28,012 nucleotides of DNA from Planctomycetota bacterium. Its GTDB lineage: Bacteria > Planctomycetota > B15-G4 > JADJEK01. The stretch is taken from positions 1-28,012 of the forward strand of contig JBGAIQ010000068.1 in assembly GCA_044225365.1 (NCBI GenBank). Reading direction: 5' to 3'. Made by a program: the position numbers and the translations under genes. Numbering within the stretch: position 1 is the first letter of the stretch; each line of letters starts with the position of its first letter. Under the pieces are notes generated by a model. The model saw only the letters and a list, made by a program, of their open reading frames with translations. It was not told the origin of the DNA and did not search any database. Below, one piece after another: positions 8,732-26,382 of the stretch.

Positions 8732-11700
8732 ATGCGTCGTGCGCTGGAAGCCCTCGTCGTTGCGATCGCGTTGCTCGCCCTGCTCGTGGCGTTGCATCGC
8801 GACGCCGTGTTCCACGGCAAGCTACTCGCGCCCCTCGACAAGCTCGGAGAATACGAGCCGTGGAAGAGCGCGTTCGACGCCGGCCGCTGCGTCAATCCCG
8901 CGCTCTCCGATCAGGTCACCTTGTTGCCGTGGACACCGCTCGCGGCGCAGCGCCTGATCCACGACGGTGAGATGACGCTGTGGAACCCGTTCCAGGGCTG
9001 CGGAACGCCGCTCCACGCGAATACGCTCTCGGCGCAACTCTTCCCGCTGATGTGGCTCCATGCGTTGCTCCCGCGGCAAGCCGCGCTGCTCGCGATCGGG
9101 CTCGCCCGCGGATTCCTCGCCGGTTTCTTCTTCTTCCTCCTGCTGCGACGACGAGGCGTGTCGTTTCTCGCGTCGCTCTTCGGAGCGCTCGCGCTGCCGA
9201 TCTCCGGCTTCTACGCGATCTGGCTCGGACATCAGCAGACGATCGTTGCATGCCTCCTCCCGCTGCTGCTCTGGCTCGTCGATCGCGCGATCGAGCGCGC
9301 ATCGCCCGTGCGCGTCGCGCTCGTCGGACTCGTCTCCGGCTCGACGCTCCTCGCCGGCCATACCGAGACCGCACTGCACGTCCTGCTGATCGCGGGCGCC
9401 TACGCGGTCTTCGGCTGCTTCTTCGCCGCGAAGCCGCTTCGTCGCCGCGTCCTCGACCTGCTCGCGATCACGGGCGGATTCCTGATCGGCGCGCTCATCT
9501 CGATGGCGCAGGTCCTGCCGTTCCTCGAGTACTCGCTGAATTCGGCGATCATCTTCCTGCGGCACAACCCGCTCTATCGCTTCCACAACGCGTGGCGCGA
9601 CCTGCGGCCGGACGAAACGACGCCCGCCGTGTTGTCGATCGTGGCGGCGCTCGCGGCGATCGTGCTCACCGGTCGCGCGGCGCGGTCGATCCGCGGCGGC
9701 GAGAACGGCAAATCGCTCGCGTTCACGCTGCTCGCGATCGCGGCCTCCGTGATCGCGTTCCATCACGCATTCGCTCTCGGCCTCCTCGATCAGTTCGAGC
9801 TCTTCCTCGATCCCGACCGGCGAGGCAGTCCGCTCCAGGATCGCGCGAGCGGCGCCTACGTCGGATACCTGCTCTACGTCGAGATGAACTGCGGCTACGC
9901 CTCGCTCGCCGCCCTTCCGCTCGCGATCGCGGCGATGGCCTTGCGCCCCCGCGGGAACGGACGCAGCGACAAGGGAACGCTCGTACTCGCCGCGATGGTG
10001 TTCATCTCGCTTGCGATCGTCTTCGAATGGCCGCTCGTCGCGCACGCGATCTCGCGCACGCCGGTCTTCGCGGAAGCGAAGAACAAGCGACTCCTGCTCG
10101 CGTCGTCGTTCGGCATCTTGTGGCTCGCCGCGAAGGGGATCGATCTGCTTCGGGATGCTGCGCGCCGTGACGAGCGCCGCGCGTTCCTCGCCGTTCTCGT
10201 CGCGATCGCGGTGCTCGCCCTCGGCATCGTCGGCGGGCGCTTTCTTGCGAAGCCGGACAGCCCCGTCGGGAATCCGAGCGTCCCGGTGACGGAATCGACT
10301 CCCGCCGAGATCGTGAAGCAGAACGCCGCCGCGCTCGCCCGCGGCGAACTCGTCGCTCACGTTCGCGATCTCGTCCCCGAGCGCGCACGCGCCGGCGATT
10401 CGATCGAGCTGTCCGCCTACGCCTTCGTTCCCGATTCGATCGCGAGTCTCGATCTCCTCATCGCAGGCGTGGAGAAGCAGGTCGCATCGCGCCTCGAGGC
10501 TCTCCCACCTCCCGCGGACCTGCTCACGCTCGAACGGCTACCGAAGCTGGCGACGAGCGCGTATCGCGCCGTCATCGACGGCTCGAAGGAAGCAGGGCTC
10601 CCGACCGGTCGCTACTCGGTGTTCGTGATCGGCAAGGATCGCGAGGGCAACGAGGTGTCGCGCGTCGCCTGCGGCGCGCTCTACTTCTCTCGCCCCGCCA
10701 CGGCGACCTGGCGCTACGTGCTCGCGATCTCGCTTCTCCTGCTCTCGGTCCTCTTCGCGCTCGGCCTCGGCGACCTCGCGATCCAGCTGTTCGCGATCGC
10801 CGCGCTCCTCGATCTCTTCCTGTTCGCCGACGGCTTCAATCCGGCCGTCGATAAGAAGTGGGACTTCCCCACGACCCCCGCGATCGAGTTCCTGAAGGCG
10901 CATCAGGACGCCGCGCACCCCTCGCGCGTTTACGGCATCAACGCGAACATCCTCCCCGCGAACATCGCGACTGCGTACCAACTCGCCGATACGCGCAACT
11001 ACGACTCGGTCGACATCAACGCCTACAACTCCTACCTCGGGCTCTTCGCGAAGACCTCGCTCGAGGGCGCGACTCGCGCGCCGCTCGATTGCGCGTCGCC
11101 GCTCTTCGATCTCCTCGCGGCACGCTACGTATTGTGTCCGAAGGGGACTTCCGATGCCGGCAAGCCCGCGCCGGACTTCACGCGAGTGTTCGATCGCGAG
11201 ATCACGATCTTCGAGAATCCGCACGCTCTTCCGCGCTGCTTCGTCGCGCAGGAAGCCGTGACGCCCGCCGCGATCGTGAAGCTCTCCGGCGGTGATCCGA
11301 AGAACCAGGCTCACCTCGATCTGTTCGCGCAGGCCTGGAAGAAGGCTTTGGAGCAACATCAGATCTTCCCCGGCAATCGAGTTCTCGTCCTCGACGAGGA
11401 TGCGGCGCGCTTCCACGCGAAGTCCGAGATCGAGGGCAAACTCGAGTCGACCACCGTGAAGCCCGCGCGGTTCCTCGTCGACGATTGCGATCGGTTGGTC
11501 GTCGAGGCCGAGTCCGACGACGACGGAGTGCTCTTCCTCGCCGACGCCTTCATGCCGGGCTGGGTCGCATCGATCGACGGCCAGGCCGCACAACCCTGCG
11601 CGCGCGCCGATCTCGCCTTCCGCGCGATTCCCTTCCCCAAGGGAGTGCATCGCGTCGAGTTCCGCTACGAGTCGAAGATGATCGCGTGGGGCATGCGACT

Positions 11701-11818
11701 GTTCGGCGTCGGGCTCGGGCTCGTCGTCGCGCTCGTGGCCATGGGAATGCTGTTCACGAGGTCGCCGCATTCGAATCCGGAGTTCGAATCCGGCTCGGCT
11801 CGCCCCGCTCAGTTCTGA
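8732..11818 (+). CDS. YfhO-family polytopic membrane protein (putative GT-C glycosyltransferase)
   Basis: LWNPFQGCGTPLHAN motif, many TM helices, LLAGH, AQVLP, and a C-terminal ENPHALPR...LFLADAFMPGWVASIDG...GVHRVEFRY region followed by a final TM. Alternative starts are at 8690 and 8693. Confidence 0.8.
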   Translation: MRRALEALVVAIALLALLVALHRDAVFHGKLLAPLDKLGEYEPWKSAFDAGRCVNPALSDQVTLLPWTPLAAQRLIHDGEMTLWNPFQGCGTPLHANTLSAQLFPLMWLHALLPRQAALLAIGLARGFLAGFFFFLLLRRRGVSFLASLFGALALPISGFYAIWLGHQQTIVACLLPLLLWLVDRAIERASPVRVALVGLVSGSTLLAGHTETALHVLLIAGAYAVFGCFFAAKPLRRRVLDLLAITGGFLIGALISMAQVLPFLEYSLNSAIIFLRHNPLYRFHNAWRDLRPDETTPAVLSIVAALAAIVLTGRAARSIRGGENGKSLAFTLLAIAASVIAFHHAFALGLLDQFELFLDPDRRGSPLQDRASGAYVGYLLYVEMNCGYASLAALPLAIAAMALRPRGNGRSDKGTLVLAAMVFISLAIVFEWPLVAHAISRTPVFAEAKNKRLLLASSFGILWLAAKGIDLLRDAARRDERRAFLAVLVAIAVLALGIVGGRFLAKPDSPVGNPSVPVTESTPAEIVKQNAAALARGELVAHVRDLVPERARAGDSIELSAYAFVPDSIASLDLLIAGVEKQVASRLEALPPPADLLTLERLPKLATSAYRAVIDGSKEAGLPTGRYSVFVIGKDREGNEVSRVACGALYFSRPATATWRYVLAISLLLLSVLFALGLGDLAIQLFAIAALLDLFLFADGFNPAVDKKWDFPTTPAIEFLKAHQDAAHPSRVYGINANILPANIATAYQLADTRNYDSVDINAYNSYLGLFAKTSLEGATRAPLDCASPLFDLLAARYVLCPKGTSDAGKPAPDFTRVFDREITIFENPHALPRCFVAQEAVTPAAIVKLSGGDPKNQAHLDLFAQAWKKALEQHQIFPGNRVLVLDEDAARFHAKSEIEGKLESTTVKPARFLVDDCDRLVVEAESDDDGVLFLADAFMPGWVASIDGQAAQPCARADLAFRAIPFPKGVHRVEFRYESKMIAWGMRLFGVGLGLVVALVAMGMLFTRSPHSNPEFESGSARPAQF

Positions 11819-14673
11819 TTCGTCGCGTCATCACGGATCTTCTTGGCCTCGTCCGGTCGGCCGAGTCTCTCCAAGGCGATCGCGAGCTCTTCCGCCACGC
11901 GGAGGATCGAGGGATCGCCGGACTTCAGCGTCGCGTATTGAATCGCGAGCGAGCGCCGCAACATGTCTTCAGCCCCCTTCAGATCGCCGCTCTCGCGCTT
12001 TGCGACCCCGAGATCGAGCTCGACCGCGCCGACGCCGGGATCGCCCGTGCCAGCGAGCCGCGTGAAGTTGGAAAGGACCGCTTCGAGGAGCGGAATCGCC
12101 TCCAAGTATTCCTTCGAGAGCATGTATGTCGCGGCGAGGTCGCCGATCAGTTGGATGGTCGCCTCGTGTTCGTCGCCGAGCTCGCGACGGCAGGCGGCGA
12201 CGAGAGGCTTCAGCATCGCGACTCCCTCGTCCGGCTTCTTCAGCGCGTTCAGGGCTTCGGAGAGCCAGTTCGCCGCAGCGGTCACGGTGGGCGCCGTCGC
12301 GCCGAGCGATGAGCGGCCGGTCTCGACGATCGTGCGGAGTTCGGGCTCGGCCTCGTCGAATCGACGCTCCTCGATCAAGAAGGCCGCGAGCGCGAGCCGC
12401 ATCTCGAGCGCCTCGCGGTCGCCGGTTCCCGCGGCGCGCGCGGAATCCTCGACCGCCGCGCGAAGGATCGGCTCGGCCTCCGTTCTGCGACCCATGCGGC
12501 AGAGCACTTTCGCGAGCGACCGTCGGCACTGGCTCGTGGTCTCGGCGCCATCACCGAAGTAGCGGCGGGCGCCCTCGAGCGCGGACTGGAGTCGCTCGCG
12601 CGCGGCCTCGAAGGCGCCGCTCGCCGTCAGCGCCCGACCCTCCGTCTCGAGAGCCGTGATCGTCATGAGGCTTCGCTCGCCGAGGCGCGTCTCCGACTCG
12701 GCGTGGATCCTCGCCAGTTCCTTTGCCGCTTCCTCGGGCTCCGTCGCGATCGAGCGATCCGCGAGATCCAGTTCGATGCGGAGCCGAAAGGCGTGATTGT
12801 CGAGCGAAGTGCCCTTCACGTGGGAAAGCGCGCGATCGAGCATCTCGTGCGCCTCCGTCTTCTTGCCCGCCGCGAGCAACGTCTCGGCGCAGGCCGCCTC
12901 GACCATCGCCTGTTCTCCGCTGCCCGGCAAGTGCTCCCCGGCGATCGCGACGGCTCGTCGATGCAGTCCCTCTGCTTCCTCCATGCGGCCGAGTGAATCG
13001 AGGACCGTGCCGAGCGAACTCATCGCCACGATGACGTCCTTGTCGCTCTCACCCACGGCGGCCGCGAGGCCCGTCAACGCCGTTCGATACTCGCGTTCTG
13101 CGTCCTCGCGACGTCCCTGGCCCTTTCGCAGCGTTCCCAGGGCGATCCGTGCGCGCAAGGTCTCGACATCGCGATCTCCGAGCAGAGTTCGCCGCAATTC
13201 GACGGCGCGCTCGAGGTGAGGCGCGGCCGAGACGACGTCGTCGATCGACAGATAACACGCGCCGATCACGGAGCGGACGGCGGCCTCGACGAGCGGCTGG
13301 CCGCGCAGCTCCGAATCGATGCGGGTGGCCGCTTCGTCGATGACGGACTTCATCGTAGCGTCGCGCCTTCCCGTGTCGGCGCGGACGGCGGCGAAGATGT
13401 TCGTCACGAACGCCAGCGTTGCCTGGGCGCGCGTCGCCTCGAGGGCCGCGGAATCGCGGGCGCGCTCCGCCGCAGCTTTCTCGCGCAACGCGACCCATAG
13501 ACCGGTGGTGAGCGCGATCAGGATCGCGGCGAGCGTCGCGAGCGCCGAGCGATGGCGTCGCGCGAACTTCCTTGCTCGATAGAGGCCGCTCGGCGGGCCG
13601 ACTTCCAAGGGTTCGTCCGCCAGATACCGCGCGATGTCGGCCGCCAACTCCGACACCGACCGGTATCGACGATCCCGTTCGCGATCGACCGCTTTGGCGA
13701 CGATCCAATCGATCTCGCGCGGAATCGACGGATCGAGCACGCTCGGGGGCTTTGGTTCGGTGGTCGCGACGATCTGGATCGCCTCCACCACGTTCTTGCC
13801 GCGCAGATCGAAGAGCGGCGATCCGCATAGCAGTTCGTGGAGTACGGCTCCGAGCGAGTACACATCGGCGCGCACGTCGATCGCTTGCAGATCGCTGCGG
13901 AGCTGTTCGGGCGCCATGTACTGCAAAGTGCCGAGGACTTCGCCGGCGACGGTCCGACTCGACCGATCGTTGTCACCGCCCGCGATACGCGCGACCCCGT
14001 AGTCGATCACCTTGGGCGTGCCGCGCTCGTCGACCAAGATGTTGCTCGGCTTCAGATCACGATGCAGCACGCCGCGCTGATGGCCGTGGTGGACCGCGTC
14101 GCAAACCGCCGCGAATCGCAGCAGTCTCTCCCGAATCGATGAAGAAAGCCCCTGCTCGTACGCGCAGAGCGGCTTCGCGCCGGCGATCAGCTCCATCGCG
14201 AAGATCGGCCTGCCGTCGATCCCAGCCTCGAAGATCTGCGCGATGTTCGGATGCTGCAGGCGGGCGAGCGCTTCCGCCTCGTATTCGAAGCGCCGCCGCG
14301 CATTCGAATCGAGCAGATCGGCGCGAATCGTCTTGAGAGCGACGATGCGAGTGGGATGGCTCTGCGTCGCCTCGAACACCGTCCCCATTCCGCCCGACGC
14401 GATCACGCGCTGCAGCGTGTAGCGCCCGATCTGCATCCCAGGGCGAAGCTCCGGTTCGATGGGCGGGATGAGCCCGCGTTCGATCGCGTAGTGGAGCGGT
14501 GTGTACTCGAAGAGAGTCGCCGACTCGGCCTCCGCGGCGAGGAGCGCTTCCACTTCGGATCGGAGAGTCTCGTCCGACCCGCACTCCGCAGCGAGGAAGG
14601 CCCCGCGGCCCGCCGGGGCGATTTCGAGAGCGCGCTCGAAGACCGCGCGGATGCGAGGCCACGTCGGAGTCAT
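11809..14673 (-). CDS. Ser/Thr protein kinase with a TM helix and C-terminal TPR repeats (ECF-associated kinase type)
   Basis: N-terminal W.RIRAVFERALE...FLAAECG leader; kinase motifs IASGGMG, VALK, HRDLKPSN, DYG, GTLQYMAPE and DVYSLG; TM ALATLAAILIALTTGLWVAL; repeated TPR_12-like units (AVELRRTLLGD, RSLAIQYATL). Confidence 0.93.
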   Translation of the reverse strand: MTPTWPRIRAVFERALEIAPAGRGAFLAAECGSDETLRSEVEALLAAEAESATLFEYTPLHYAIERGLIPPIEPELRPGMQIGRYTLQRVIASGGMGTVFEATQSHPTRIVALKTIRADLLDSNARRRFEYEAEALARLQHPNIAQIFEAGIDGRPIFAMELIAGAKPLCAYEQGLSSSIRERLLRFAAVCDAVHHGHQRGVLHRDLKPSNILVDERGTPKVIDYGVARIAGGDNDRSSRTVAGEVLGTLQYMAPEQLRSDLQAIDVRADVYSLGAVLHELLCGSPLFDLRGKNVVEAIQIVATTEPKPPSVLDPSIPREIDWIVAKAVDRERDRRYRSVSELAADIARYLADEPLEVGPPSGLYRARKFARRHRSALATLAAILIALTTGLWVALREKAAAERARDSAALEATRAQATLAFVTNIFAAVRADTGRRDATMKSVIDEAATRIDSELRGQPLVEAAVRSVIGACYLSIDDVVSAAPHLERAVELRRTLLGDRDVETLRARIALGTLRKGQGRREDAEREYRTALTGLAAAVGESDKDVIVAMSSLGTVLDSLGRMEEAEGLHRRAVAIAGEHLPGSGEQAMVEAACAETLLAAGKKTEAHEMLDRALSHVKGTSLDNHAFRLRIELDLADRSIATEPEEAAKELARIHAESETRLGERSLMTITALETEGRALTASGAFEAARERLQSALEGARRYFGDGAETTSQCRRSLAKVLCRMGRRTEAEPILRAAVEDSARAAGTGDREALEMRLALAAFLIEERRFDEAEPELRTIVETGRSSLGATAPTVTAAANWLSEALNALKKPDEGVAMLKPLVAACRRELGDEHEATIQLIGDLAATYMLSKEYLEAIPLLEAVLSNFTRLAGTGDPGVGAVELDLGVAKRESGDLKGAEDMLRRSLAIQYATLKSGDPSILRVAEELAIALERLGRPDEAKKIRDDATNQN

Positions 14674-14679
14674 GTTCGA

Positions 14680-15300
14680 TCACGACGCGCGATCGGCGTC
14701 GGTCCCCTTCAACAGCCGATGGAGGAACGACCGCGCAACGGCGAACCGCCGCTCCACCGTCGCGAGCGACAAGCCGCGTAGTCTCGCGATCTCCTCGTTG
14801 GGAAGGCCCGCGAAGTAGCGAAGATCCACGAGTTCGGCGAGCTCCGGATCGACGGCGGCGAGCTTCTCGAGCGCATCGTTCAGGGGAAGCAACTCGAGAG
14901 CTTCCCTGGCAGGCAGGTCCGCGCTGGCCACGGCTCCCGTTTGATCGAGGGAGAGGGCGCGTTTTCCGTGGCCACGTTTTTCCGCAGCGCTCCGTCGCGC
15001 ATGATCGACCAGGATCGAGCGCATCGCCTTCGCGGCGGTGCAGCAGAAATGGAACTGACTCGTGTAGCCCTCGCCCGATGCATCGGAGGGTCCCGCGAGC
15101 TTCACCCACGCCTCGTGCAGCAATTCCGTCGGCCGCAATGTGGCTCCGGCATCGACGCGCGCGAGCTGCCGCTTCGCGAGGCCCTTCAGCTCGTCGTAGA
15201 GTCGGGAGAACAACTCCTTGCGCGCGGACTCATCGCCCGCGCGCAGGAGTTCGAGCAGCCGATCGATCGATGGAAAAGGGTCGGGCATCGCGGGCGCCAT
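14680..15300 (-). CDS. ECF RNA polymerase sigma factor, TIGR02999/Sigma70_ECF (kinase-associated) type
   Basis: LYDELKGLAKRQL, TLRPTELLHEAWVKL, AAKAMRSILVDHARR.AAEKRG and region 4 LVDLRYFAGL..EEIA...SLATVERR. It ends 6 bp upstream of the kinase start. Confidence 0.93.
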   Translation of the reverse strand: MAPAMPDPFPSIDRLLELLRAGDESARKELFSRLYDELKGLAKRQLARVDAGATLRPTELLHEAWVKLAGPSDASGEGYTSQFHFCCTAAKAMRSILVDHARRSAAEKRGHGKRALSLDQTGAVASADLPAREALELLPLNDALEKLAAVDPELAELVDLRYFAGLPNEEIARLRGLSLATVERRFAVARSFLHRLLKGTDADRAS

Positions 15301-15385
15301 GATCGCAGAATTCCAGCCGATTGCGAAATCGGAAGCGACTGGAACCCTGCGTTCGACGTCGTCCTCGACCCTCTCGACTCGACCA

Positions 15386-16099
15386 TTAGTGAAGTAGCAG
15401 GTCGGGATCCTGATCGGTTCCGAGCAGGATCGTGTCGTCGTTCACGCCGTCGGCCGTGACGACGTGATCGACGCCGCCGTTGCCGACCGCGATGTCGCGG
15501 CCGGTTCCGAGTTCGATGAGATCGTTCCCGGCGCCGCCGATGAGGATGTCGTTGCCGCCGCCGCCGATCAGATGAACCGGATACGGGAATCGCGGATCGA
15601 CCTCGATGCGGTCGTCGCCCGCGCCGCCCACGATTCGCAGAGACCGCGCTTCTTCGGCATCGAGGTACGACGTCTCGCGTACGCCGTCGTCCGTCATGTG
15701 GCCGAACTCGTCGAGCTTCCGAGTGCCGCGCGTGACGTACGCGCCGCCGGTGCTCGGCTCGTACCGGACCTCGATCAGGTCCTCGCCGCTCGTGCCTTGA
15801 ATGAGCCGGCCATGCATGAGTCCGTCGTTGTACTCGGGGAAGTCGGGGCCTTGGAGATAGTGGCGCAGGCGAGCCTTCAGCTTCGTGAGGGCGTCGAGAT
15901 CCTTCAATGGAAACGTGCCCATCTGCTGCGTCGTGAAGTAGTGGAGGAACGATCCCTCCTTCTTGGGATCGATCGCGCGGTACTTCGGATCGATCCCTCC
16001 CGTCGGAGGATTCGTGAGCGGAGGAAGCGCCGGCGCCTTCGCGGACGCGAGAGTGGTTCCGGAGACGATGGACGCGGTGAGCTTGGAGATCGAGGACAT
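15386..16099 (-). CDS. Hypothetical protein with RTX/hemolysin-type Ca-binding nonapeptide repeats (paralog A)
   Basis: RBS AAGGAG 7 nt before ATG 16099; repeats GGAGDDRIE, GGGGNDILI, GGAGNDLIE, LGTGRDIAV and GNGGVDHVV; homologous to 16375-16962. Confidence 0.85.
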   Translation of the reverse strand: MSSISKLTASIVSGTTLASAKAPALPPLTNPPTGGIDPKYRAIDPKKEGSFLHYFTTQQMGTFPLKDLDALTKLKARLRHYLQGPDFPEYNDGLMHGRLIQGTSGEDLIEVRYEPSTGGAYVTRGTRKLDEFGHMTDDGVRETSYLDAEEARSLRIVGGAGDDRIEVDPRFPYPVHLIGGGGNDILIGGAGNDLIELGTGRDIAVGNGGVDHVVTADGVNDDTILLGTDQDPDLLLH

Positions 16100-16170
16100 G
16101 AGGGTACTCCTTGTCGAAAAGGGTCGGGTTTGCGTGACGGCCGCTTCGAACGAAGCGGCTCCATGGTCAT

Positions 16171-16200
16171 CACGCGGCAGCAACGGATCACCCCTCATGA
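16171..16200 (-). promoter_or_regulatory. Putative ECF-type promoter for paralog A and possibly the sigma-kinase genes
   Basis: The minus strand reads TCATGAGGGG-N16-CGTG; the same motif and spacing occur at 16265-16294 on the plus strand. Confidence 0.6.
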
Positions 16201-16264
16201 GTTCTTCGATTCTCCTGGGGTGAGGATCTCCGAACGCGTCGCCATCGCGATGGTCCTCTTTTTT

Positions 16265-16294
16265 TCGTGAGGGGCGTTCGACCGCGACTTCGTG
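16265..16294 (+). promoter_or_regulatory. Putative ECF-type promoter for paralog B
   Basis: TCGTGAGGGG-N16-CGTG, preceded by a T7 tract (16259-16265) that could act as an UP element. Confidence 0.6.
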
Positions 16295-16374
16295 TTCTCG
16301 ATCGTCGCGACGAACCGCACGGTGCGGAAACCCGTCGCGAGCCCTCTCGAACCGCAACGAAATTGGAGACTCCC

Positions 16375-16962
16375 ATGATCTTCCCGAACCACTCTGCTCT
16401 CGGTGGCCTCAGCTCCTCCATCCTGTCGAGCCAACTCACCTCGACGGCGAAGAAGGTCGCGACCGGCTCGCTCGGATCGGCTACGCCGATCCTGAATCCT
16501 CAACTCGGCACGCCCGTCGAACCTCCTGGAACGGCCAAAGTGGATCATTCCTTCGACTCGAGTCGCATCCTCGAGAACGACGCGCTGAAGCGGATTCGTC
16601 CGAGCGATCCTTCGCCCTACGACACTCCGATCGAGCCGCCCGTCGCCGACGACCGGACTTCGCTGCCGCAGCTCGATGGCTACACCGAGTTCGTCGCGAA
16701 GGCGAAGAACCTGTTCTTCGGCAGCGATTTCGAGACGATCGACGACGGCACGTACCAGGGCAAGCGAATCGTGCCGACGGACGGCGACGACGTGATCGAG
16801 ATCCGCTACGACCCAGCGACGAGTGGGACCTTCGTCACCGTGAACGGCGAGACGTCGTATCTCACCGCCGAGGACGCGCACTTCCTGTTCATCGATGGAG
16901 TCGGCGCGAACGACGTCGTGAAGATCGACGCCGCGTATCCCTACCCCGTGGTTCAGCACTGA
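16375..16962 (+). CDS. Hypothetical protein (paralog B), lacking the C-terminal RTX-repeat tail
   Basis: GGAG at 16365-16368 before ATG 16375; aligns by hand to paralog A in two ungapped blocks (19/40 and 17/34 identities). Confidence 0.82.
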   Translation: MIFPNHSALGGLSSSILSSQLTSTAKKVATGSLGSATPILNPQLGTPVEPPGTAKVDHSFDSSRILENDALKRIRPSDPSPYDTPIEPPVADDRTSLPQLDGYTEFVAKAKNLFFGSDFETIDDGTYQGKRIVPTDGDDVIEIRYDPATSGTFVTVNGETSYLTAEDAHFLFIDGVGANDVVKIDAAYPYPVVQH

Positions 16963-17046
16963 GCGACCAGATCCTCGGACGAGTCGGGCGAGTGCGCGGT
17001 GCGAACCACCGCGGCTTGCCCGCGCTCGTTCGTGCCGCCTCGGGCG

Positions 17047-18375
17047 CTACGCCACGGGCCGGGCCGACGCCGCGGCTGCCATCGCTTGCTGCTTCCTGCC
17101 GAGGAAGATCGCGACGACGAGCCATACGACGGCGAAAGGAACGGCGGAGGCGAGCACGGCGGCAGACCCCATCGCGAGGGACGACGCGAGTTCTTTGAAC
17201 GCGCTGCCCGTTGCATCGCCGATGCGGTACACAAACGTGTCGATGAACACCTTCGCCTGATATTTCTCCTCGCGACTCACGACCGTGTAGAGCACTTCTC
17301 GCGACGGCTTCGTCACGACGTACTCCACGACCTTGCGCGTCGCCTCGAACACCGCGATCCAGACGAGCGAGGGATGGATCGCGACGCCAAGGAAACCGAG
17401 GATCGTGACGACGGGCACGAACGCGAGCCCGCCCGTGACGCCGAGGAATCGCAATACCGCGGACGTCGCGAGCAACTGCCCGACGAGCGTGAGGCCCTGC
17501 GTCCATCCGTCGAGCGTGGCGGAGAACTTGGCGATCGCGTCGCGATCCTTGCCGAGTTCGCTGCTCATCATGAAGCTCTTCTCGAGACTGATCGCCGTCG
17601 ACGTGAACGTGTAGAGCACGAGGAAGAGGCAAATCATCAGCAGGTACTTCGAAGCGAAGCAACGGCGCATGCCCTCGAGCGCCGATGCCTTCGTCCCTCG
17701 ATTCTCGCGCACGACATGCAGACTCGCGCCGAAGGGCGAGGCCGCGATCGCCATCGCGAGCAGTCCTCCGAGGATGAAGAGCAGCGCCGAGATTCCGAGG
17801 TACGCGATCACCTTCGCGTCGCCCGTCAGCCACGCCACCCGGTCCTTCAACGACGAGACGAAGCTCACGATCTGCGCACCAGCGAGTCCGCCGAGCGTGC
17901 CGCCCGCGAACATGAGGCCGTACCACTTCTTGGCCCGTTCGCTCGCGAACAACTGAGCCATCGTGCCCCAGAACACCGAGATCGCGAACAGACTGAACAA
18001 CGAAACCCAGATGTAGAAGGCGCGCGCGAGCCAGGTCTCCGCGGACTTGTCGACCGTCTTCACCGCGACGGCGAACCCGAGAAGTACGAGCACGACGACG
18101 CCGACCACGAGCTTCAAAACCCGCAGCGCGGAGTTCTTTCCGGCGACCGCGGAGAACAACATGTTCGCAGGGAGTACGACGAGCGCGGAGATCGCGAACA
18201 GCGCGGGCAGATTCTCGACGCCCTGCACGATCCCGTACACGTCGCGCAGCGGACGCTGGACGAAGTAACTCGCGAACCAGCAGAACAGCCAGAGCGAGGC
18301 AAGGATCGCCGCGCGCTTCTCGGAAGGCTCTTCTCGGGGAGTCGCGTTCGCTTCACTGTTGGTAGGTTCAGGCAT
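17047..18375 (-). CDS. NTT/AAA-family (ATP:ADP antiporter-like) MFS-fold transporter
   Basis: Many TM helices; motifs YFVQRPLRD, FYIWVSLF...SVFW and KPSREVLYTVV.REEKY.AK.FIDTFVYRIGD. Confidence 0.85.
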   Translation of the reverse strand: MPEPTNSEANATPREEPSEKRAAILASLWLFCWFASYFVQRPLRDVYGIVQGVENLPALFAISALVVLPANMLFSAVAGKNSALRVLKLVVGVVVLVLLGFAVAVKTVDKSAETWLARAFYIWVSLFSLFAISVFWGTMAQLFASERAKKWYGLMFAGGTLGGLAGAQIVSFVSSLKDRVAWLTGDAKVIAYLGISALLFILGGLLAMAIAASPFGASLHVVRENRGTKASALEGMRRCFASKYLLMICLFLVLYTFTSTAISLEKSFMMSSELGKDRDAIAKFSATLDGWTQGLTLVGQLLATSAVLRFLGVTGGLAFVPVVTILGFLGVAIHPSLVWIAVFEATRKVVEYVVTKPSREVLYTVVSREEKYQAKVFIDTFVYRIGDATGSAFKELASSLAMGSAAVLASAVPFAVVWLVVAIFLGRKQQAMAAAASARPVA

Positions 18376-18453: not shown

Positions 18454-19865
<1,412 letters not shown>

Positions 19866-19869
<4 letters not shown>

Positions 19870-20201
19870 CTCTTGCCACGATCATGGCAGAGCGACCTGT
19901 GGACGGAAAGGACGACTTCGAAAGCCGTGCGGAGTTCGTCGTCGGAGCTCGTTCCCCGAAGGAGCGACTCGAGTCGCCCGGCTGCGTTGCTGATCTCGGG
20001 GAATCCGTAGGCCCCACCTGAGCCCTTCCAGTTGTGCGCGTGGCGCAACACCTCCGCGCGTGTGGCAGCCGAGATCGATTCGCGTTCCGCGTGACCAGAC
20101 GCCCCGATCGCATCCCGCAGCCTCGAGAGCTCTTCATCGAGGTCGGCCAAGTAGCTGTGCTGCAAGGCGCGGAACCTCTCATCCCGTGTTCCATCGATCA
20201 T
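19866..20201 (-). CDS. Hpt (histidine phosphotransfer) domain protein
   Basis: 111-aa helical ORF with AHNWKGSGGAYGF...A..LE; its stop overlaps the response-regulator start (ATGA, 19866-19869). Confidence 0.9.
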
Positions 20202-20249
20202 CGGTCCCCCTTCCCCGGTCGTTCCCTCTTGGAAGCGGCTCGGCTCATT

Positions 20250-22718
20250 CTACCCATCCATTCCCGCGCGCGCGTACCCGTCCGGTCCAAAGGTGCCCTT
20301 CATCGCCAACACTCGCATCACTTCTTCGCGAAGGACTTCGGAACGCACGGGCTTGGGAAGGAAGCTCGTCACTCCGTGGAGCTCGAGACTTTGCGGTCGA
20401 TCCTGACCCGATATCACGATCACACTGGGCGGCGAACCCGAACCGTTCGCTCGCACCGACGCAATGACCTCGAGCCCGTTGAAGTCGGGCAGTTCGAGAT
20501 CGACGAGCATCACCTCGGGGTGGTGCTCGTTGGCGATGCGGACGCCTTGCTCGCCCGTCTCGGCGCAGATCACGTCGATTCCACATCGCTCGAGCGATGC
20601 CGCGATGATTCGATGTGCGAGACGATCGTCGTCGATCGCGAGGACGAGTGGTCGCTCCCGAGGCGTGGGTGCGGGCGCTGGCAAGGGCTCGGGGATCGGC
20701 GCTCCGCGACGACGCGGCAGCAGGACGCGAAAGGTCGATCCCGAGCCGCGCTTGCTCTCGACCTCGATTCGACCACCATGCTGTTCGATCGCGAGCTTCA
20801 CGATCGCGAGTCCGAGTCCCGTGCCGCGAATCGCTCGCGTCTCCGCGTTCTCGGCGCGGAAGAACCGCTCGAAGATCCGGATCTTGTCGACGGGGTCGAT
20901 TCCAATCCCGGTATCCGTGATCGTGACCTCGACGCAGTTCTCGTCGAGCACCCGCGCGGTCGCCGTCACCTCTCCTTCGAGCGTGTACTTCACTGCGTTC
21001 GATACGAGATTCGAGAACAGGTGACGAAGGCGCTTCTCGTCGCCTTCGATGATGATCTCCGCCGGAACATCGAGCATGAGGCCAAGCGATTTCTGCTCCG
21101 CGGTCGCACGCTCGAGTTCGATCACGCCGCGGAGGAGCTCGGCGAGATCGACTCTGCCGAACACCGGACGCTCTTCCTCGAATTCGCCGACGGCGAGCAG
21201 GTCGGATACGAGCGCCGCGAGACGATTCACGTTCTCCGAGACGATGCGGAGAGTGTGTTTCTGTTTGTCCGACAACGGGCCGATGCGCTCGTTGCGCATG
21301 AGCTCGACGAAACCAGAGATCGATGTGAGCGGCGTCCGCAGTTCGTGGGACACATTGCCGAGGAACGCATCCTTGGCGCGGCGGGCTCGCTCTTCCTGCG
21401 TGACGTCGCGAACCACGCACAGCCGCCCGATCCAACGACCGTCCGCCCCATGCACCGGGACGGCGGAGATCAATACGATCTTCGCGAACGGAATCGGCAA
21501 CGTCGCTCGGAACGGGAGCAAGGACTGCCGCAGGTCATCGCCTTCTCCGCCGAAGAGCCGCGCGAACGTCTTCGCGCTCTCGGGCGACCACTCACCGATC
21601 CGCGCTTCGAGATCGGCTCCACTCATTCCAGGGAACAAGTCCACGTCGATCCCGAGGATCTCCCGGAGCGAACGATTCGCGTAGGCGATTCGTCCGTCGG
21701 GGCCGATGAGGATCAACCCGTCGCGACTCGCGGAGAGGAGAGCGTTCAGCGAGTCCGTTCGTTCCGCGAGGCTCTCGATCGCGCGACGCCGCTCGGTGAC
21801 ATCGTCGAGATGCAGTGCGAACACGCGACCAGATCCTCGCAGCGTCCGAGTGACGCGGACGTGGCAGATGGTCGTGATGGACTTTCCGTCGTCGCGTCGG
21901 AGCTCCGATTCGAAGGACATCGTCTCGCGACCCTCGGCGATCATCGCGGAAAGCGCAGCGGGCAAGTCGTCGGCCTCTTCGACGCACAATCCTCCGACAC
22001 TCCGACCCACGAGCGCCGCGGGCGTCGAGCGGAGAAGATCGCAGAGTGCGCGGTTCACGCGACGGATCGATCCGCTCTCGTCGCAGAGCAAGATGCCGAC
22101 AGGGGCATGCTCGAACGCCGATTCGAGTTCGCTCTCGAGTGCTCTGCGCCGATCGATCTGCGCGAGTTGAAAGAAGAGCAGCACAACGACGATCACCGCG
22201 AGGAAGCACGACGCGACCACGAGCGCCGTCAGGATTCGCCACAGATCGTTCAAATGCGCGGTCGAGTTGCCGAACGAGTATTGCAGCGAGTTGCGTGCGC
22301 GGGCGATCGAATGCGAGATCGAGATGAGCCGATCGAGACGTTCCTCCCGCGAGATCGAGCGACTTCCGGTACCCGTACGAAGTTCGCGCATTGCCATGAC
22401 ACCGGTGCGCGCATCTTCGATCAGCCCTCGCGCCTCGCTTGGAAGATCCGCGGATTGGGCGAATCGATTCAACTCTCTGAGCAGTTGCTCGTCGGCATCC
22501 GGGCTCGTCGAGTCGCGCAGACCGAAGGCGTGCGACTCGATCGCGCGCAGCGTGTTCGCGCTCTCGAAGTTCATCGTCAGCAGCTTGGATTCGTCCTCGA
22601 TGCCGCAGAGCAAATGGACGGATGCTGCGATGAATCCGATCGCCGCGAGCACGACGAACGCGAGGAGGCCGTATCGCCGGTGAGGCGAGTCGAGCCAACT
22701 GCCCACGACTCGCGTCAT
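20250..22718 (-). CDS. Hybrid sensor histidine kinase (2 TM, extracytoplasmic domain, 2 PAS, HisKA, HATPase, REC)
   Basis: PAS segments FEHAPVGI...VN and ASRDGLILI...YAN; H-box VSHELRTPL; NLVSNAVKY, DTGIGI, FERFFR and GTGLGL; REC IDDD/VDLELPD/PKP. The start overlaps the HAD gene stop (ATGA). Confidence 0.93.
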   Translation of the reverse strand: MTRVVGSWLDSPHRRYGLLAFVVLAAIGFIAASVHLLCGIEDESKLLTMNFESANTLRAIESHAFGLRDSTSPDADEQLLRELNRFAQSADLPSEARGLIEDARTGVMAMRELRTGTGSRSISREERLDRLISISHSIARARNSLQYSFGNSTAHLNDLWRILTALVVASCFLAVIVVVLLFFQLAQIDRRRALESELESAFEHAPVGILLCDESGSIRRVNRALCDLLRSTPAALVGRSVGGLCVEEADDLPAALSAMIAEGRETMSFESELRRDDGKSITTICHVRVTRTLRGSGRVFALHLDDVTERRRAIESLAERTDSLNALLSASRDGLILIGPDGRIAYANRSLREILGIDVDLFPGMSGADLEARIGEWSPESAKTFARLFGGEGDDLRQSLLPFRATLPIPFAKIVLISAVPVHGADGRWIGRLCVVRDVTQEERARRAKDAFLGNVSHELRTPLTSISGFVELMRNERIGPLSDKQKHTLRIVSENVNRLAALVSDLLAVGEFEEERPVFGRVDLAELLRGVIELERATAEQKSLGLMLDVPAEIIIEGDEKRLRHLFSNLVSNAVKYTLEGEVTATARVLDENCVEVTITDTGIGIDPVDKIRIFERFFRAENAETRAIRGTGLGLAIVKLAIEQHGGRIEVESKRGSGSTFRVLLPRRRGAPIPEPLPAPAPTPRERPLVLAIDDDRLAHRIIAASLERCGIDVICAETGEQGVRIANEHHPEVMLVDLELPDFNGLEVIASVRANGSGSPPSVIVISGQDRPQSLELHGVTSFLPKPVRSEVLREEVMRVLAMKGTFGPDGYARAGMDG

Positions 22719-23368
22719 TCCTGACGACACAAACGCGTGATCTCGCGGGGATGCGTGACGACGTGCTTCGGCGAATGTGCGCGCAACTCGTCCTCGGAGC
22801 GAAAGCCCCACGTCACCGCCGCGATGTCGAGTCCCGCGGCGACCGCAGTCTGCATGTCGATCGGGGTGTCTCCGACGTAGAGGACCTTCTCCCGCGGCAC
22901 TCCGAGCTTCGTCACGATGTAGTTCGCGCTCGTCGGATCCGGCTTGCGGGGAAAGTCCTCGCGATGGCCGAGCACCTGGTCGAACAGGCCCTCGATCCTC
23001 AGTCCCTCCACCGTCGCAAGTGTGAGGTCGTGCGGCTTGTTCGACAGAACGGCAAGTCGCGATCCATCCTGCGAGAGTGCATCGAGCATCTCGTCGATTC
23101 CCGGATAGAGGCGACAATGCAGCATCGGGTTCCTGGCGTAGAACGCGCGAGTCTCGGCGATGAGTCGATCCGCGAGATCGGACCGGTCGGGCGGTAGCGC
23201 GTTCCGACAGAGCATCTGCACACCCTCGCCGACGATTCGGGATACGTGAGCGAGTTCGAGGGGCGCCTGCCCCACCTGGACGAGGCCGTGATTCAGCGCG
23301 GCGCCGATCGTCTCGAGCGTATCGGCGAGGGTCCCATCGAGATCGAAGATCACGGCATCGTATCGCAT
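22715..23368 (-). CDS. HAD-family hydrolase, phosphoglycolate phosphatase (Gph)-like
   Basis: Motif I FDLDGTL, motif II VLSNK, motif III KPDP, motif IV YVGDTPID, and VTWG. Confidence 0.9.
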   Translation of the reverse strand: MRYDAVIFDLDGTLADTLETIGAALNHGLVQVGQAPLELAHVSRIVGEGVQMLCRNALPPDRSDLADRLIAETRAFYARNPMLHCRLYPGIDEMLDALSQDGSRLAVLSNKPHDLTLATVEGLRIEGLFDQVLGHREDFPRKPDPTSANYIVTKLGVPREKVLYVGDTPIDMQTAVAAGLDIAAVTWGFRSEDELRAHSPKHVVTHPREITRLCRQE

Positions 23369-23374
23369 CCCCCG

Positions 23375-23404
23375 ATCGTATCCGACCCGTCGCCGAGGGC
23401 TCAA
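23375..23404 (-). promoter_or_regulatory. Putative sigma70 promoter for a leaderless transcript of the HAD/phosphorelay genes
   Basis: The minus strand reads TTGAGC-N18-TACGAT-N6-ATG (start 23368), with no obvious SD sequence. Confidence 0.5.
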
Positions 23405-23526
23405 CTTCGGAAGGAAAGATCGCCGATGCAAGGCGGATCGAGCATCGTTCGTGCGTCCCATCGCCCTCGCGGGGTACGCCACGGTGTCGGCGCGACACCG
23501 CAACACCTGGGAGCCCTGTACACCCC

Positions 23527-24657
23527 ATGACGCAGCGCAGGCGACAAACCCTGGCGATCGTCCTTGCGTGCGCGTCGATGGCGCTCGCCATCCTGCCCGC
23601 CGCGATTCCGTCGATACGCGGATCGGATGGATCCACGCGAGGCGGTGCCTGGCCGCTGGCGTATCTGCTCGCCTCGATCGCAGCCGCGGGAGCCGCGGGA
23701 ATCGTCTTGTTCGAAGCGACGAAGGCCGCGCGACCGCGCTCGCTCGGCGAACGCGAGACCAAGCGGTCCGGGATCGATTTCGCCATTCGCGGCAGCGAGA
23801 TGTTGCGCGAAGCAGGATTGAAGCAGCAGATCGAATCGAGCTTCCGCAAGCTGCTCGACGAGTACGCGAGCGCGATCGAGTCGGGCCGTACCGATGAGGA
23901 CGAACTCGCAGTCCAATTGCGACGAACGAACGCCGAGCTGCGGTTCTCGAACCATCGGCTCCGCGAGCAGGATCGCATGCGCGACGAGTACGTCGCCCTG
24001 TTGTCCCACGAATTGAGGACACCCCTCGCAGCGATCCGCTCCTACGTCGAGATCCTCTGCAACTACGATTCCTCGCTCGACGTCGCGAAGCGACGCGAGT
24101 GCCTCGACGTGCTGCACGGTGAAGTCACGCGCTGTTCACGGCTCGTGAACGACCTGCTCGACATGGCTCAGCTCCAGCGCGGCGGAGTGGAATTCCAGTC
24201 CACCGCGATCGACTGCGCGGGACTCGCGTCGCAGGTCGTCACCTCGCTGCGACCACTCGCGAATTCGCGCAGCCAATCGGTCGAACTCGTCGAGAAACCG
24301 GGGCTACGCCGCGCCCTCGCGGATGGCGACCGCGTGGTTCAGATCCTCACGAACCTTCTCGGCAATGCGATCAAGTTCACTCCCGTGGGCGGACGGATCG
24401 AGATCCAAGTCGTGCCGTTCGGCGACACTCGCGTAGAGATCGGAGTTGCCGACAGCGGTGAAGGAATTCCGCCCGAAGAGCGCGAGGAGGTTTTCCGCGC
24501 GTTCTATCGCGGAGCCGGCGCCGCGGAGTCCGAAGGCTGCGGCCTTGGGCTCTATCTCAGCCGCGAGCTCGCCGTGCGCATGAACGCGGAGCTCTTCGTC
24601 GAAGACTCTTCGCTCGGTGGCGTCCGGTTCGTGCTGCGACTGCCCGCCGCTCCGTGA
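23527..24657 (+). CDS. Membrane-bound sensor histidine kinase (HisKA plus HATPase)
   Basis: Two N-terminal TM helices with a short loop, a coiled coil, LSHELRTPL, NLLGNAIKF, DSGEGI, FRAFYR and GCGLGL. Confidence 0.92.
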   Translation: MTQRRRQTLAIVLACASMALAILPAAIPSIRGSDGSTRGGAWPLAYLLASIAAAGAAGIVLFEATKAARPRSLGERETKRSGIDFAIRGSEMLREAGLKQQIESSFRKLLDEYASAIESGRTDEDELAVQLRRTNAELRFSNHRLREQDRMRDEYVALLSHELRTPLAAIRSYVEILCNYDSSLDVAKRRECLDVLHGEVTRCSRLVNDLLDMAQLQRGGVEFQSTAIDCAGLASQVVTSLRPLANSRSQSVELVEKPGLRRALADGDRVVQILTNLLGNAIKFTPVGGRIEIQVVPFGDTRVEIGVADSGEGIPPEEREEVFRAFYRGAGAAESEGCGLGLYLSRELAVRMNAELFVEDSSLGGVRFVLRLPAAP

Positions 24658-24663
24658 CCGCGG

Positions 24664-26382
24664 CTACGGCGCCTCCATTCGAGGCCAATGCGCGAGGATC
24701 CTCCGCATCAACTCCGCACCGTAGGACGCGCGCGCATCGTCCGGCCACGCCTCTGCGAGAGCGTCGCTCATCAAGACGATCATCTTCTTGCGGGCACGCG
24801 TCAGCGACACGTTGAGGCGATTCGGCGAGAAGAAGAAATCGGCGTCGCGGTGCATCGCCTCGGGATCGCTCGCGGTCAGCGACAGGATGATGAGATCGCG
24901 CTCGCCTCCCTGCAGCCGCTCGACCGTATCGACCAGCGGGCGGCGATCGTGTTCGAGTTGCGGGAGCTTCGAGCGGAGCAGCGAGCGAATGCGGTTGCCT
25001 TGCGCTCGATGCGGCGCAATGACCGCGATCTCCTCCGGAGGCAATCCTCCAGCGATGGCGCGAACGACGAGTTCGACCGCGATTTCGGCTTCGGACGGAG
25101 CGAGCACCCGCGCGCCGCGATGACGAAGTGGGATCACGAGAGCCGCGGGTTCCGGCGCGAGCCAAGGGCCGACTTCGCCACGCAGGATCAAGAAGCGATC
25201 CCGCGCAGAACTCGCGCTCTCGAGTTTGCCGCCGTAGAACGCCTGGCTCGCAAAGGCGCATATCTCCGCGTTCATCCGGTACGTCGTCGACAGGAGATGC
25301 GATCCGTACAGCTCGTGAAGGTGCTGGAACAACGAAGTTCGCGCGAGCGGATCGCGGTGCGAACCGACGACCAGCGGCGGCAGTTGTTGATGATCACCGA
25401 CGAGCACGTGACGCTTCGCGAGAGCGAGCGCCGTTGCTCCGTGCGGCAACGACACCTGGCCGGCTTCGTCCACGAGAACCAGGTCGAAGCGCCTCGAGAG
25501 CAGCCCCGCCGCGGAGTGGGTGGTCACGCCGACGACCGCGCCGCGATCGCTTCCCAATTGCGGCAATTGGCGCGCGCTCGCGACCATCGTGATACCGTCG
25601 ATCCCCGCGAAGTCTCGCGGCATGCCGCGCTCGATCTTGTAGATGGGCGCGTCGATCGATCCGTCGCGCGCGAGACTCGCGAGCACGTTGTTCACGGCGC
25701 GATGCGTGAACGCCGTCACGCACACTGTCTTGCCGTGACGCAAGAAGGCGCGGACGATGGCCGTCGCGAGGCGAGTCTTCCCGGCGCCCGGTGGCCCCTG
25801 CACGAGTTCGAAGGTGCGCGACGTGGCGTCGACGAATGCACGTTGCTGTTCGGGATCGAGGCCCTCGCGCACCGCGTCGTCGAGCGTGCCCACGATCTCC
25901 GCAGGAGATTTCGTCGCCTGGCCGAGCAGCAGCGACCGCGCGGCAGCGCATTCGTCGCGTCGCGAGAAGACGTTGCGGATCGCCTCGATCACGCGGTCCG
26001 TCAGATCGAGATCGCGGCGATCGAGGACGATCTCGCCCCCGAGCGCCACCGGATCCGCGACGCGCCCCTCGATCTCGACGACGATCTCGCCGCGAACCGG
26101 GTCGATCTCGCGTAGAACGGCCGCGATCGACGTTGGATGGCGTGGATCCCCCGAGCTCAACCAGAGCAGATCGCTCTCGCGGAAGCGGGAGAGATTCTCA
26201 TCGCAACGCAGCGTCGCCTTCGACCCGACGCGAGAGACGAGGAAGAGCCCGCGTAGAGCCTCACCCTGCGCGACGCGCTCTTCGAGTGCGAGATCATGCA
26301 CGCCCTTCAAGTTCTCGGCGCTCGCCCGCCGCTCGCGTTCGACGATCGCGACGAGACGCGATTGGAACTCCGCTTCGTTCAC
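24664..26382 (-). CDS. Superfamily 1 Dna2/NAM7/UPF1-like helicase
   Basis: QGPPGAGKT, AFTHRAVNN, VDEAGQ, VGDHQQLPP, YRM, IAPHRAQ, TVERLQGGERD and RLNVSLTRARKK. The GTG start at 26382 has GGAGG upstream and a GTGA overlap with the nuclease stop. Confidence 0.92.
   Translation of the reverse strand: MNEAEFQSRLVAIVERERRASAENLKGVHDLALEERVAQGEALRGLFLVSRVGSKATLRCDENLSRFRESDLLWLSSGDPRHPTSIAAVLREIDPVRGEIVVEIEGRVADPVALGGEIVLDRRDLDLTDRVIEAIRNVFSRRDECAAARSLLLGQATKSPAEIVGTLDDAVREGLDPEQQRAFVDATSRTFELVQGPPGAGKTRLATAIVRAFLRHGKTVCVTAFTHRAVNNVLASLARDGSIDAPIYKIERGMPRDFAGIDGITMVASARQLPQLGSDRGAVVGVTTHSAAGLLSRRFDLVLVDEAGQVSLPHGATALALAKRHVLVGDHQQLPPLVVGSHRDPLARTSLFQHLHELYGSHLLSTTYRMNAEICAFASQAFYGGKLESASSARDRFLILRGEVGPWLAPEPAALVIPLRHRGARVLAPSEAEIAVELVVRAIAGGLPPEEIAVIAPHRAQGNRIRSLLRSKLPQLEHDRRPLVDTVERLQGGERDLIILSLTASDPEAMHRDADFFFSPNRLNVSLTRARKKMIVLMSDALAEAWPDDARASYGAELMRRILAHWPRMEAP

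Follow-up and report, generated by a model that had tools for sequence, protein, structure and literature searches.

A kinase-linked ECF43-type sigma factor adjoining two rare RTX-like paralogs in a Planctomycetota genome

Introduction

Extracytoplasmic function (ECF) sigma factors of group ECF43 lack the acidic DAED/DxxD patch of region sigma2.2 and carry STTA or QTTA instead, the second threonine of which is phosphorylated (PMC13147305, PMC8999054, PMC8103513). In the EcfP/PknT pair of Vibrio parahaemolyticus, an intrinsically inactive ECF43 sigma factor with the motif STTA is activated when the neighbouring Ser/Thr kinase phosphorylates the Thr of sigma2.2, no anti-sigma factor is involved, and the regulon confers polymyxin resistance (PMC8999054, PMC8103513). 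In the EcfK/PknS pair of Xanthomonas citri, the adjacent and co-oriented sigma factor and kinase genes are located in a type VI secretion cluster and control it. The sigma2.2 motif of EcfK is QATE, about 15.8% of ECF43 members being negatively charged at that position; EcfK T51A stays functional, and phosphosites of the linker matter. PknS is composed of an 83-aa N-terminal segment of unknown role, a kinase domain, a transmembrane helix, and three described periplasmic tetratricopeptide repeats (TPRs) (PMC13147305). Here we report on a comparable locus in a Planctomycetota bacterium (assembly GCA_044225365.1), a phylum different from that of Xanthomonas. It was analysed within the whole 28,012-nucleotide stretch of contig JBGAIQ010000068.1 (the window; contig C58 of the source genome) and is known from sequence alone. 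At 11809..16962, a receptor kinase gene and an ECF sigma factor gene adjoin two small paralogous genes, A and B, which share the upstream bipartite element TGAGGGG-N16-CGTG(A/T)T.

On balance, we favour the reading in which the locus is a standard ECF43-type cassette with a kinase-activated sigma factor and A and B are its most likely local targets via the shared element. The sigma/kinase pair itself is of a well-described kind; the adjacent A/B family is small and undescribed and has a conserved block upstream.

Results

Sigma factor and receptor kinase

The sigma factor gene (14680..15300, minus strand) encodes a protein of 206 aa, which matched PF07638 at 6e-42 over residues 12-197, in keeping with the sigma2 + sigma4 architecture of ECFs, and NCBIfam TIGR02999 at 172.9 bits (cut-off 126). 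We take these two families to correspond to group ECF43. The canonical DAED of sigma2.2 is replaced by RPTE, in which T58 is the candidate phospho-acceptor. A motif alignment of 55 relatives, drawn from the source genome and from foreign loci, revealed that this Thr is invariant (55/55) within the clade consensus QPTA. Glu following it was found solely in the sigma factor of this locus, and one other relative had Asp. Since the acidic Glu is kept next to the Thr, the sigma factor belongs, as judged by its motif, to an EcfK-like ‘T-E’ subtype. Both EcfK (QATE) and this sigma factor (RPTE) have an acidic residue after the phosphorylated Thr, here a candidate one, and both have Ser/Thr in the linker (PMC13147305), whereas the STTA of EcfP is devoid of an acidic residue. 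The linker of our sigma factor carries S117, T121, and S126 as candidate counterparts of EcfK T106.

The kinase gene (11809..14673, minus strand) encodes a receptor Ser/Thr kinase of the Hanks type with a length of 954 aa. The Pfam Pkinase domain was recognized at residues 85-337 (1.1e-40), behind an N-terminal extension of approximately 84 aa, and the catalytic motifs are intact in the translation (SGGMGTV, IVALK with the VAxK lysine, HRDLKPSN, DYG, and MAPE). TPR_12 (4.1e-46) and TPR_10 cover the C-terminal half across residues ~460-950 and form a TPR ectodomain of about 550 aa. The sole hydrophobic span, residues 378-396 with a hydropathy peak of 2.19, corresponds to one transmembrane helix. 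This single helix and the Arg-rich segment before it allow us to infer that the TPR domain faces outward. The kinase is therefore organized like PknS, with an N-terminal extension (84 vs. 83 aa), a Hanks domain, one transmembrane helix, and outward TPRs; unlike in PknS, for which three TPRs are described, the TPR region is far longer (PMC13147305).

The N-terminal extension (residues 1-84, approximately 14422-14673, minus strand) was detected by tblastn in 12 of 31 kinases with a sigma factor gene directly upstream and in 3 of 63 kinases without one (foreign loci L025-L104 included). This distribution is compatible with a segment that may serve for docking of the sigma factor.

Neither Pfam nor NCBIfam recognized an anti-sigma domain in any of the four proteins of the locus, in agreement with the preliminary description, which had reported that no anti-sigma gene is present; an anti-sigma fold that these models do not recognize may still exist. 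Its proposal that the sigma factor is kinase-linked in the manner of EcfP/PknT and EcfK/PknS was likewise supported by the RPTE signature, the lack of a recognized anti-sigma domain, and the PknS-like architecture of the kinase. By analogy with these pairs, we consider it very likely that the pair works by kinase-mediated activation of the sigma factor.

Frequency of sigma/kinase cassettes

The source genome (6.53 Mb in 103 contigs, 94% complete) contains 15 sigma factor genes of this type as determined by tblastn, and 12 of them have a kinase domain at a distance of at most 450 bp. Eleven of these 12 pairs are co-oriented with the kinase downstream, and one is divergent. The kinase served as query to retrieve 80 foreign loci, and 27 of these have such a sigma factor gene directly upstream. 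The related foreign loci belong to Planctomycetota, mostly to metagenome-assembled genomes of Phycisphaerae/Phycisphaerales. Genes located upstream of the cassettes vary from copy to copy. With 12 cassettes in the genome and 27/80 foreign loci, the pair represents a heavily amplified ordinary module of the phylum, which gives no support to regarding it as special. Two cassettes lie approximately 3 kb apart on contig C33 of the source genome (17394-23123), and two more, one of which has divergent sigma factor and kinase genes, lie approximately 21 kb apart on contig C23 (17814-41524).

Organization of the locus

Paralog A (15386..16099, minus strand) encodes a protein of 237 aa and is co-oriented with the sigma factor and kinase genes, with gaps of 85 bp between A and sigma and of 6 bp between sigma and kinase. 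Paralog B (16375..16962, plus strand; 195 aa) is divergent and separated from A by a spacer of 275 bp. Orientations and gaps reported earlier were all found again in the sequence. The starts of A and B were set at ATG 16099 and ATG 16375, which stand behind AAGGAG and GGAGA, respectively; longer open reading frames (ORFs) were set aside because they begin upstream of these good ribosome-binding sites. Third-position GC of all four genes was 0.79-0.83 (0.82 in A and 0.83 in B) and equal to that of the surrounding genes, which indicates that the four genes are real and native. No terminator-like site was found in the 85-bp gap. Given this and the short gaps, A, sigma, and kinase probably form one transcription unit. 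A contig of 2230 nt from another study (X4, record 6) spans sigma, A, and B in a relative with approximately 90-94% identity.

The spacer between A and sigma holds a long imperfect hairpin (15301..15354, minus strand; inverted repeat I1 with arms of 26 nt), which ends 3 nt before the sigma start and has no U-tract. The predicted RNA fold of the region 15296-15392 (minus strand, 97 nt) had an energy of -38.7 kcal/mol (z -2.79), and 2 of 200 shuffled sequences were as stable. The hairpin may limit translation initiation of sigma or serve as a processing site.

Element upstream of A and B

The preliminary description had noted the same bipartite motif before both paralogs without giving its letters. 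We found TGAGGGG-N16-CGTGAT at 16169-16197 (minus strand), 98 nt before the A start codon, and TGAGGGG-N16-CGTGTT at 16268-16296 (plus strand), 107 nt before the B start, and the presence of a common motif was thereby confirmed only in part; its excess over chance was weak, as considered in the Discussion. In post hoc counts, GAGGGG-N16-CGTG occurred 11 times in the 6.53 Mb of the genome, 2 of these in the A/B spacer, and the extended form occurred here only.

The B-side copy is part of a conserved block (16263..16309, plus strand), which was delimited by alignment to a 3.1-kb metagenome contig, L001, that encodes an A/B relative and carries TTTCGCGAGGGGCGCTCG...CTTCGTGTTC approximately 100 nt upstream of its start codon. 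Local alignment of the B-side block with the L001 upstream region yielded a score of 41, compared with 20.9 +/- 2.9 in shuffled sequences, and none of 500 shuffles reached 41. The block is conserved although the proteins are only 39-62% identical. By this significant alignment, a real conserved cis element precedes B-type genes, and both of its core boxes recur before A with identical spacing. A coding 5' extension of B, starting at GTG 16267 in frame with B, was considered and rejected: the alignment with L001 needs indels of 1-2 nt and the in-frame codons differ, and the block is therefore taken as non-coding.

No sigma54-type promoter was found in the A/B spacer, and no sigma70 consensus promoter was found in 11500-17300. 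No ECF43 promoter consensus was found in the available text of PMC13147305, PMC8999054, PMC8103513, PMC7826278, and PMC7777525, supplements and the primary EcfP paper aside.

A second candidate motif, CGAAC/G...AAACCCG (16125-16148 and 16311-16334, inverted, 17/24 positions matching), was at chance level, as 38 of 60 shuffles reached at least 17 matches. The spacer also contains a perfect 9-bp inverted repeat, GCCGCTTCG-TT-CGAAGCGGC, at 16140-16159, 41-60 nt upstream of the A start, and at the equivalent place before B a palindrome that differs from it, CCGCAC-G-GTGCGG (16316-16328). Both could be operators or 5' stem-loops.

Paralogs A and B

A and B shared 37% identity over 111 residues in BLASTP (E 2e-20), which confirmed that they are paralogs, and no further copy was found in the source genome. 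The products are acidic, with isoelectric points of 4.5-4.8. A carries PF00353 at residues 178-212 (25.6 bits vs. a cut-off of 23). In the AlphaFold model of A (predicted local distance difference test 73.3, predicted template modelling score 0.73), residues 1-54 are disordered and rich in Ser/Thr/Pro and are followed by two helices and then by a beta-roll of the repeats-in-toxin (RTX) type. When aligned with VIA-align, the model matched RTX fragments of CyaA with Z scores of 10.5 (root-mean-square deviation 3.1 Å over 129 residues), 9.6, and 9.1, and alkaline protease with a Z score of 8.9. Foldseek against the Protein Data Bank gave nothing at E <= 0.001, the top match being the CyaA RTX chain with E 0.05. 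B had no match in Pfam or NCBIfam, PF00353 included; it is devoid of nonapeptide repeats and keeps the core that precedes the RTX part. A search of the ESM Atlas with B provided weak RTX-like leads with scores of at most 0.78. The term ‘RTX-like’, applied earlier to the whole family, is thus justified for A by PF00353 and the fold matches and extends to B by homology only.

With the described RTX proteins, such as the RTX blocks of CyaA, the C-terminal domains of serralysin/alkaline protease, and LipA, A shares GGxGxDxUx nonapeptide repeats and the predicted beta-roll. Unlike RTX toxins and enzymes, A is only 237 aa long and has no enzymatic or pore-forming domain; B differs from known RTX proteins by having no nonapeptide repeats, and the core common to A and B sets them apart as a tiny separate family. 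This core reads IEVRY..TGGAYVT..TSYL.AEEA..L.I.G..G.D.I.VD..FPYPV.

When 5.8 billion clusters were searched with A, four proteins (P0005-P0008) covered at least 70% of A with E of 1e-22 to 1e-60, and six further matches had partial coverage only; with B as the query, only B itself was retrieved. An exhaustive phmmer search with B against 1.84 billion representatives detected P0015, A, P0005, and P0008, together with a few large RTX-type proteins that repeat a similar unit of ~50 residues. Matches to an A/B profile occurred in 49 of 400 other genomes of the phylum, mostly at the RTX repeat part; two of the 49 had a match extending N-terminally as far as profile position 103, and the N-terminal part of the core was covered in none. 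No relative was found on contigs of species-representative genomes. Among the metagenome contigs searched, only L001 encoded one, with a core 62% identical to that of A and 39% identical to B. By these searches, the A/B family, RTX-like and undescribed, is very rare: among billions of proteins it has about five relatives. From the anatomy, A and B would be a lineage-restricted pair of small acidic RTX beta-roll proteins, which are probably exported.

In three larger proteins that are otherwise unrelated to A and B (P0016, P0017, and P0021), a core G.D.I.V....G...VTVNG....FTAEEA..L.I.GG.GND.I.V recurs 2-3 times ahead of the RTX repeats. From its sequence, the core shared with A and B has the look of a reusable module that caps beta-rolls or forms their entry.

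Discussion

By analogy with EcfK/PknS and EcfP/PknT, the single-pass membrane kinase would sense a signal via its outward TPR domain and phosphorylate the sigma factor encoded next to it on T58 of sigma2.2, with Ser/Thr of the linker as possible further sites. The phosphorylated sigma factor could then bind core RNA polymerase. As read from the gene anatomy only, it would activate A and B through TGAGGGG-N16-CGTG(A/T)T, with positive autoregulation as a consequence. The described pairs differ in their outputs: EcfK/PknS control the surrounding type VI secretion cluster (PMC13147305), whereas two small RTX-like paralogs are the neighbours here, and nothing comparable to the polymyxin resistance conferred by the EcfP regulon (PMC8999054, PMC8103513) is present in the window.

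A regulatory link from the sigma factor to A and B is plausible from the layout of the locus. The element has the geometry of a bipartite sigma70-family promoter, with a CGT-containing downstream box, and stands at a similar distance from the start codons of both neighbours. Because A and the sigma gene run in the same direction and no terminator separates them, one promoter could drive A, sigma, and kinase and give the autoregulation that is usual for ECFs. That A and B are direct targets of this sigma factor is nevertheless less likely than not, and a number of results weigh against it. Part of them concerns the element. Dinucleotide shuffles of the spacer produced at least one common 6+4 bipartite match at comparable distance in 89 of 1000 cases, by which the match in the window is only weakly unusual, and the alignment between the upstream regions of A and L001 was not significant (173 of 500 shuffles reached its score). 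In the relative X4, the stretch of 89 nt containing the A-side copy remained unaligned at 80% identity, with both flanks aligned. The extended pattern had 17 matches in 41 further genomes of the class vs. 16 for the reversed control, all of them inside open frames of at least 274 codons. A stricter pattern had 47 scattered matches in species-representative genomes of many phyla, none near a homolog of A/B, sigma, or kinase. The 85 bp that precede the sigma gene contain no copy of the element. De novo search for a bipartite motif upstream of 58 related sigma genes gave a top count of 14, within the range of 11-16 in shuffles, and disclosed no autoregulatory promoter common to these genes. The usual ECF -35 box is GGAAC-like, and the G-rich upstream half of the element is unlike it.

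The other part of the objections concerns gene neighbourhoods. On L001, the only locus of an A/B homolog with readable DNA, the A homolog is followed by a convergent 577-aa gene without a Pfam family, and no sigma gene lies downstream. The best ortholog of the kinase (G247; 48% identity over the full length) is accompanied by a sigma gene and no A/B, both genes adjoining a DUF7133/cytochrome c gene instead. Except for L001, the A/B core was absent from all 101 foreign loci, including the 27 with sigma-kinase pairs. The comparison of neighbourhoods across genomes, proposed at the outset as a check, thus disclosed no linkage of A/B to sigma-kinase pairs in L001, G247, or the 27 foreign pairs; given the rarity of the A/B family, it is a thin test. 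The statement that sensor, sigma factor, promoter, and output are all visible in about 5 kb is attractive; it draws on the adjacency seen in a single lineage and on the upstream element that A and B share, and the available comparative tests did not bear it out.

A and B could also be unrelated, lineage-specific neighbours of one of many cassettes, the element having been copied with the gene duplication and being read by another sigma factor or regulator, and the true targets of the sigma factor being located elsewhere. The 12 cassettes with their diverse upstream neighbours, the missing linkage in L001, G247, and the 27 foreign loci, and the atypical upstream half of the element fit such an arrangement, as does the native codon usage of A and B (third-position GC 0.82-0.83), which shows no obvious recent insertion tied to the cassette. 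It is harder to reconcile with the position of A only 85 bp upstream of sigma in the same orientation with no terminator between, with the preservation of the arrangement in the related strain X4, and with the lack of a sigma54-type promoter in the spacer and of a sigma70-type one in 11500-17300, and we regard it as rather unlikely. The shared blocks might, alternatively, act as RNA, as part of folded 5' leaders whose GAGGGG base-pairs with a CCCTC box close to the start codon or ribosome-binding site and thereby controls translation. In A, CCCUCAUG, a stretch that includes the start codon, is exactly complementary to CAUGAGGG, and the leader of 119 nt has a predicted fold of -44.2 kcal/mol (z -2.93), which none of 200 shuffles equalled; GAGGGG also pairs with CCCUC in the consensus fold of B and L001. 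However, the individual leaders of B and L001 are no more stable than shuffled sequences (z -0.39 and -0.42), the minimum-energy fold of L001 pairs GAGGGG otherwise, covariation cannot be judged from two or three sequences, and the only Rfam hit was located elsewhere and had E 0.59, which does not count as a match. Translational control by such leaders is accordingly very unlikely.

It had further been suggested that A and/or B, or their products, are ligands of the TPR domain in a feedback loop, which would require that they are exported and bind the kinase ectodomain as a co-sensor or feedback ligand. The topology would permit this, as the single transmembrane helix puts the TPR domain outside, and RTX beta-rolls normally fold outside the cell. 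Against it, neither A nor B has a classical signal peptide or a hydrophobic segment (peak Kyte-Doolittle value in a 19-residue window below 1.0), no genes of an ABC/membrane-fusion protein/TolC type I exporter turned up in the Pfam scan of the window genes, the rest of the genome not having been searched, and A and B do not co-occur with such kinases elsewhere. A model of the TPR region (398-954, 6 alignment rows) together with A (55-237, 7 rows), made without controls, scored 0.06 and 0.01 vs. a mark of 0.32 and speaks neither for nor against binding. No result supports the idea, and we consider it extremely unlikely. Improbable too, to a lesser degree, is the most elaborate version of the reading we favour, namely a minimal self-contained ECF43 circuit. 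In it, the phosphorylated EcfK-like sigma factor would read the unusual promoter TGAGGGG-N16-CGTG(A/T)T, occurring twice in the genome, and would drive B in one direction and the A-sigma-kinase operon in the opposite one, under positive feedback, and the regulon would consist of two exported calcium-dependent mini RTX surface or signal proteins, perhaps sensed by the TPRs.

Such cassettes are massively amplified in Planctomycetota, where almost nothing is known of what they sense and control. If the sigma factor does act on A and B, kinase-gated ECF signalling in this phylum could be studied in a compact locus of about 5 kb, which would also provide the first promoter specificity for the clade and the first functional handle on a tiny RTX-like family. 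For now, the pair is a further ECF43/Hanks-kinase cassette whose neighbour is anecdotal; the useful outcomes are the correction of scale to 12 cassettes in the genome, the ‘T-E’ sigma subtype, and the conserved non-coding block.

Other genes of the window

A second regulatory cluster (18454-24657) adjoins the A/B locus. According to the Pfam scan, it comprises a sigma54-dependent response regulator (18454-19869, minus strand), a hybrid PAS histidine kinase of 1242 aa with a receiver domain (20250-23978, minus strand), and a further histidine kinase ORF (23527-24657, plus strand). Near the beginning of the window, an ORF of 967 aa (340-3243, plus strand) combines a protein kinase domain (residues 100-388) with a C-terminal FGE-sulfatase (formylglycine-generating-enzyme-like) domain (residues 723-960). 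At 24664-27737 (minus strand), a protein with a Cas4/PD-(D/E)XK nuclease domain comes after a helicase-like ATPase of superfamily 1 (AAA_11, AAA_12, AAA_30), and the two could form a repair or defence pair.

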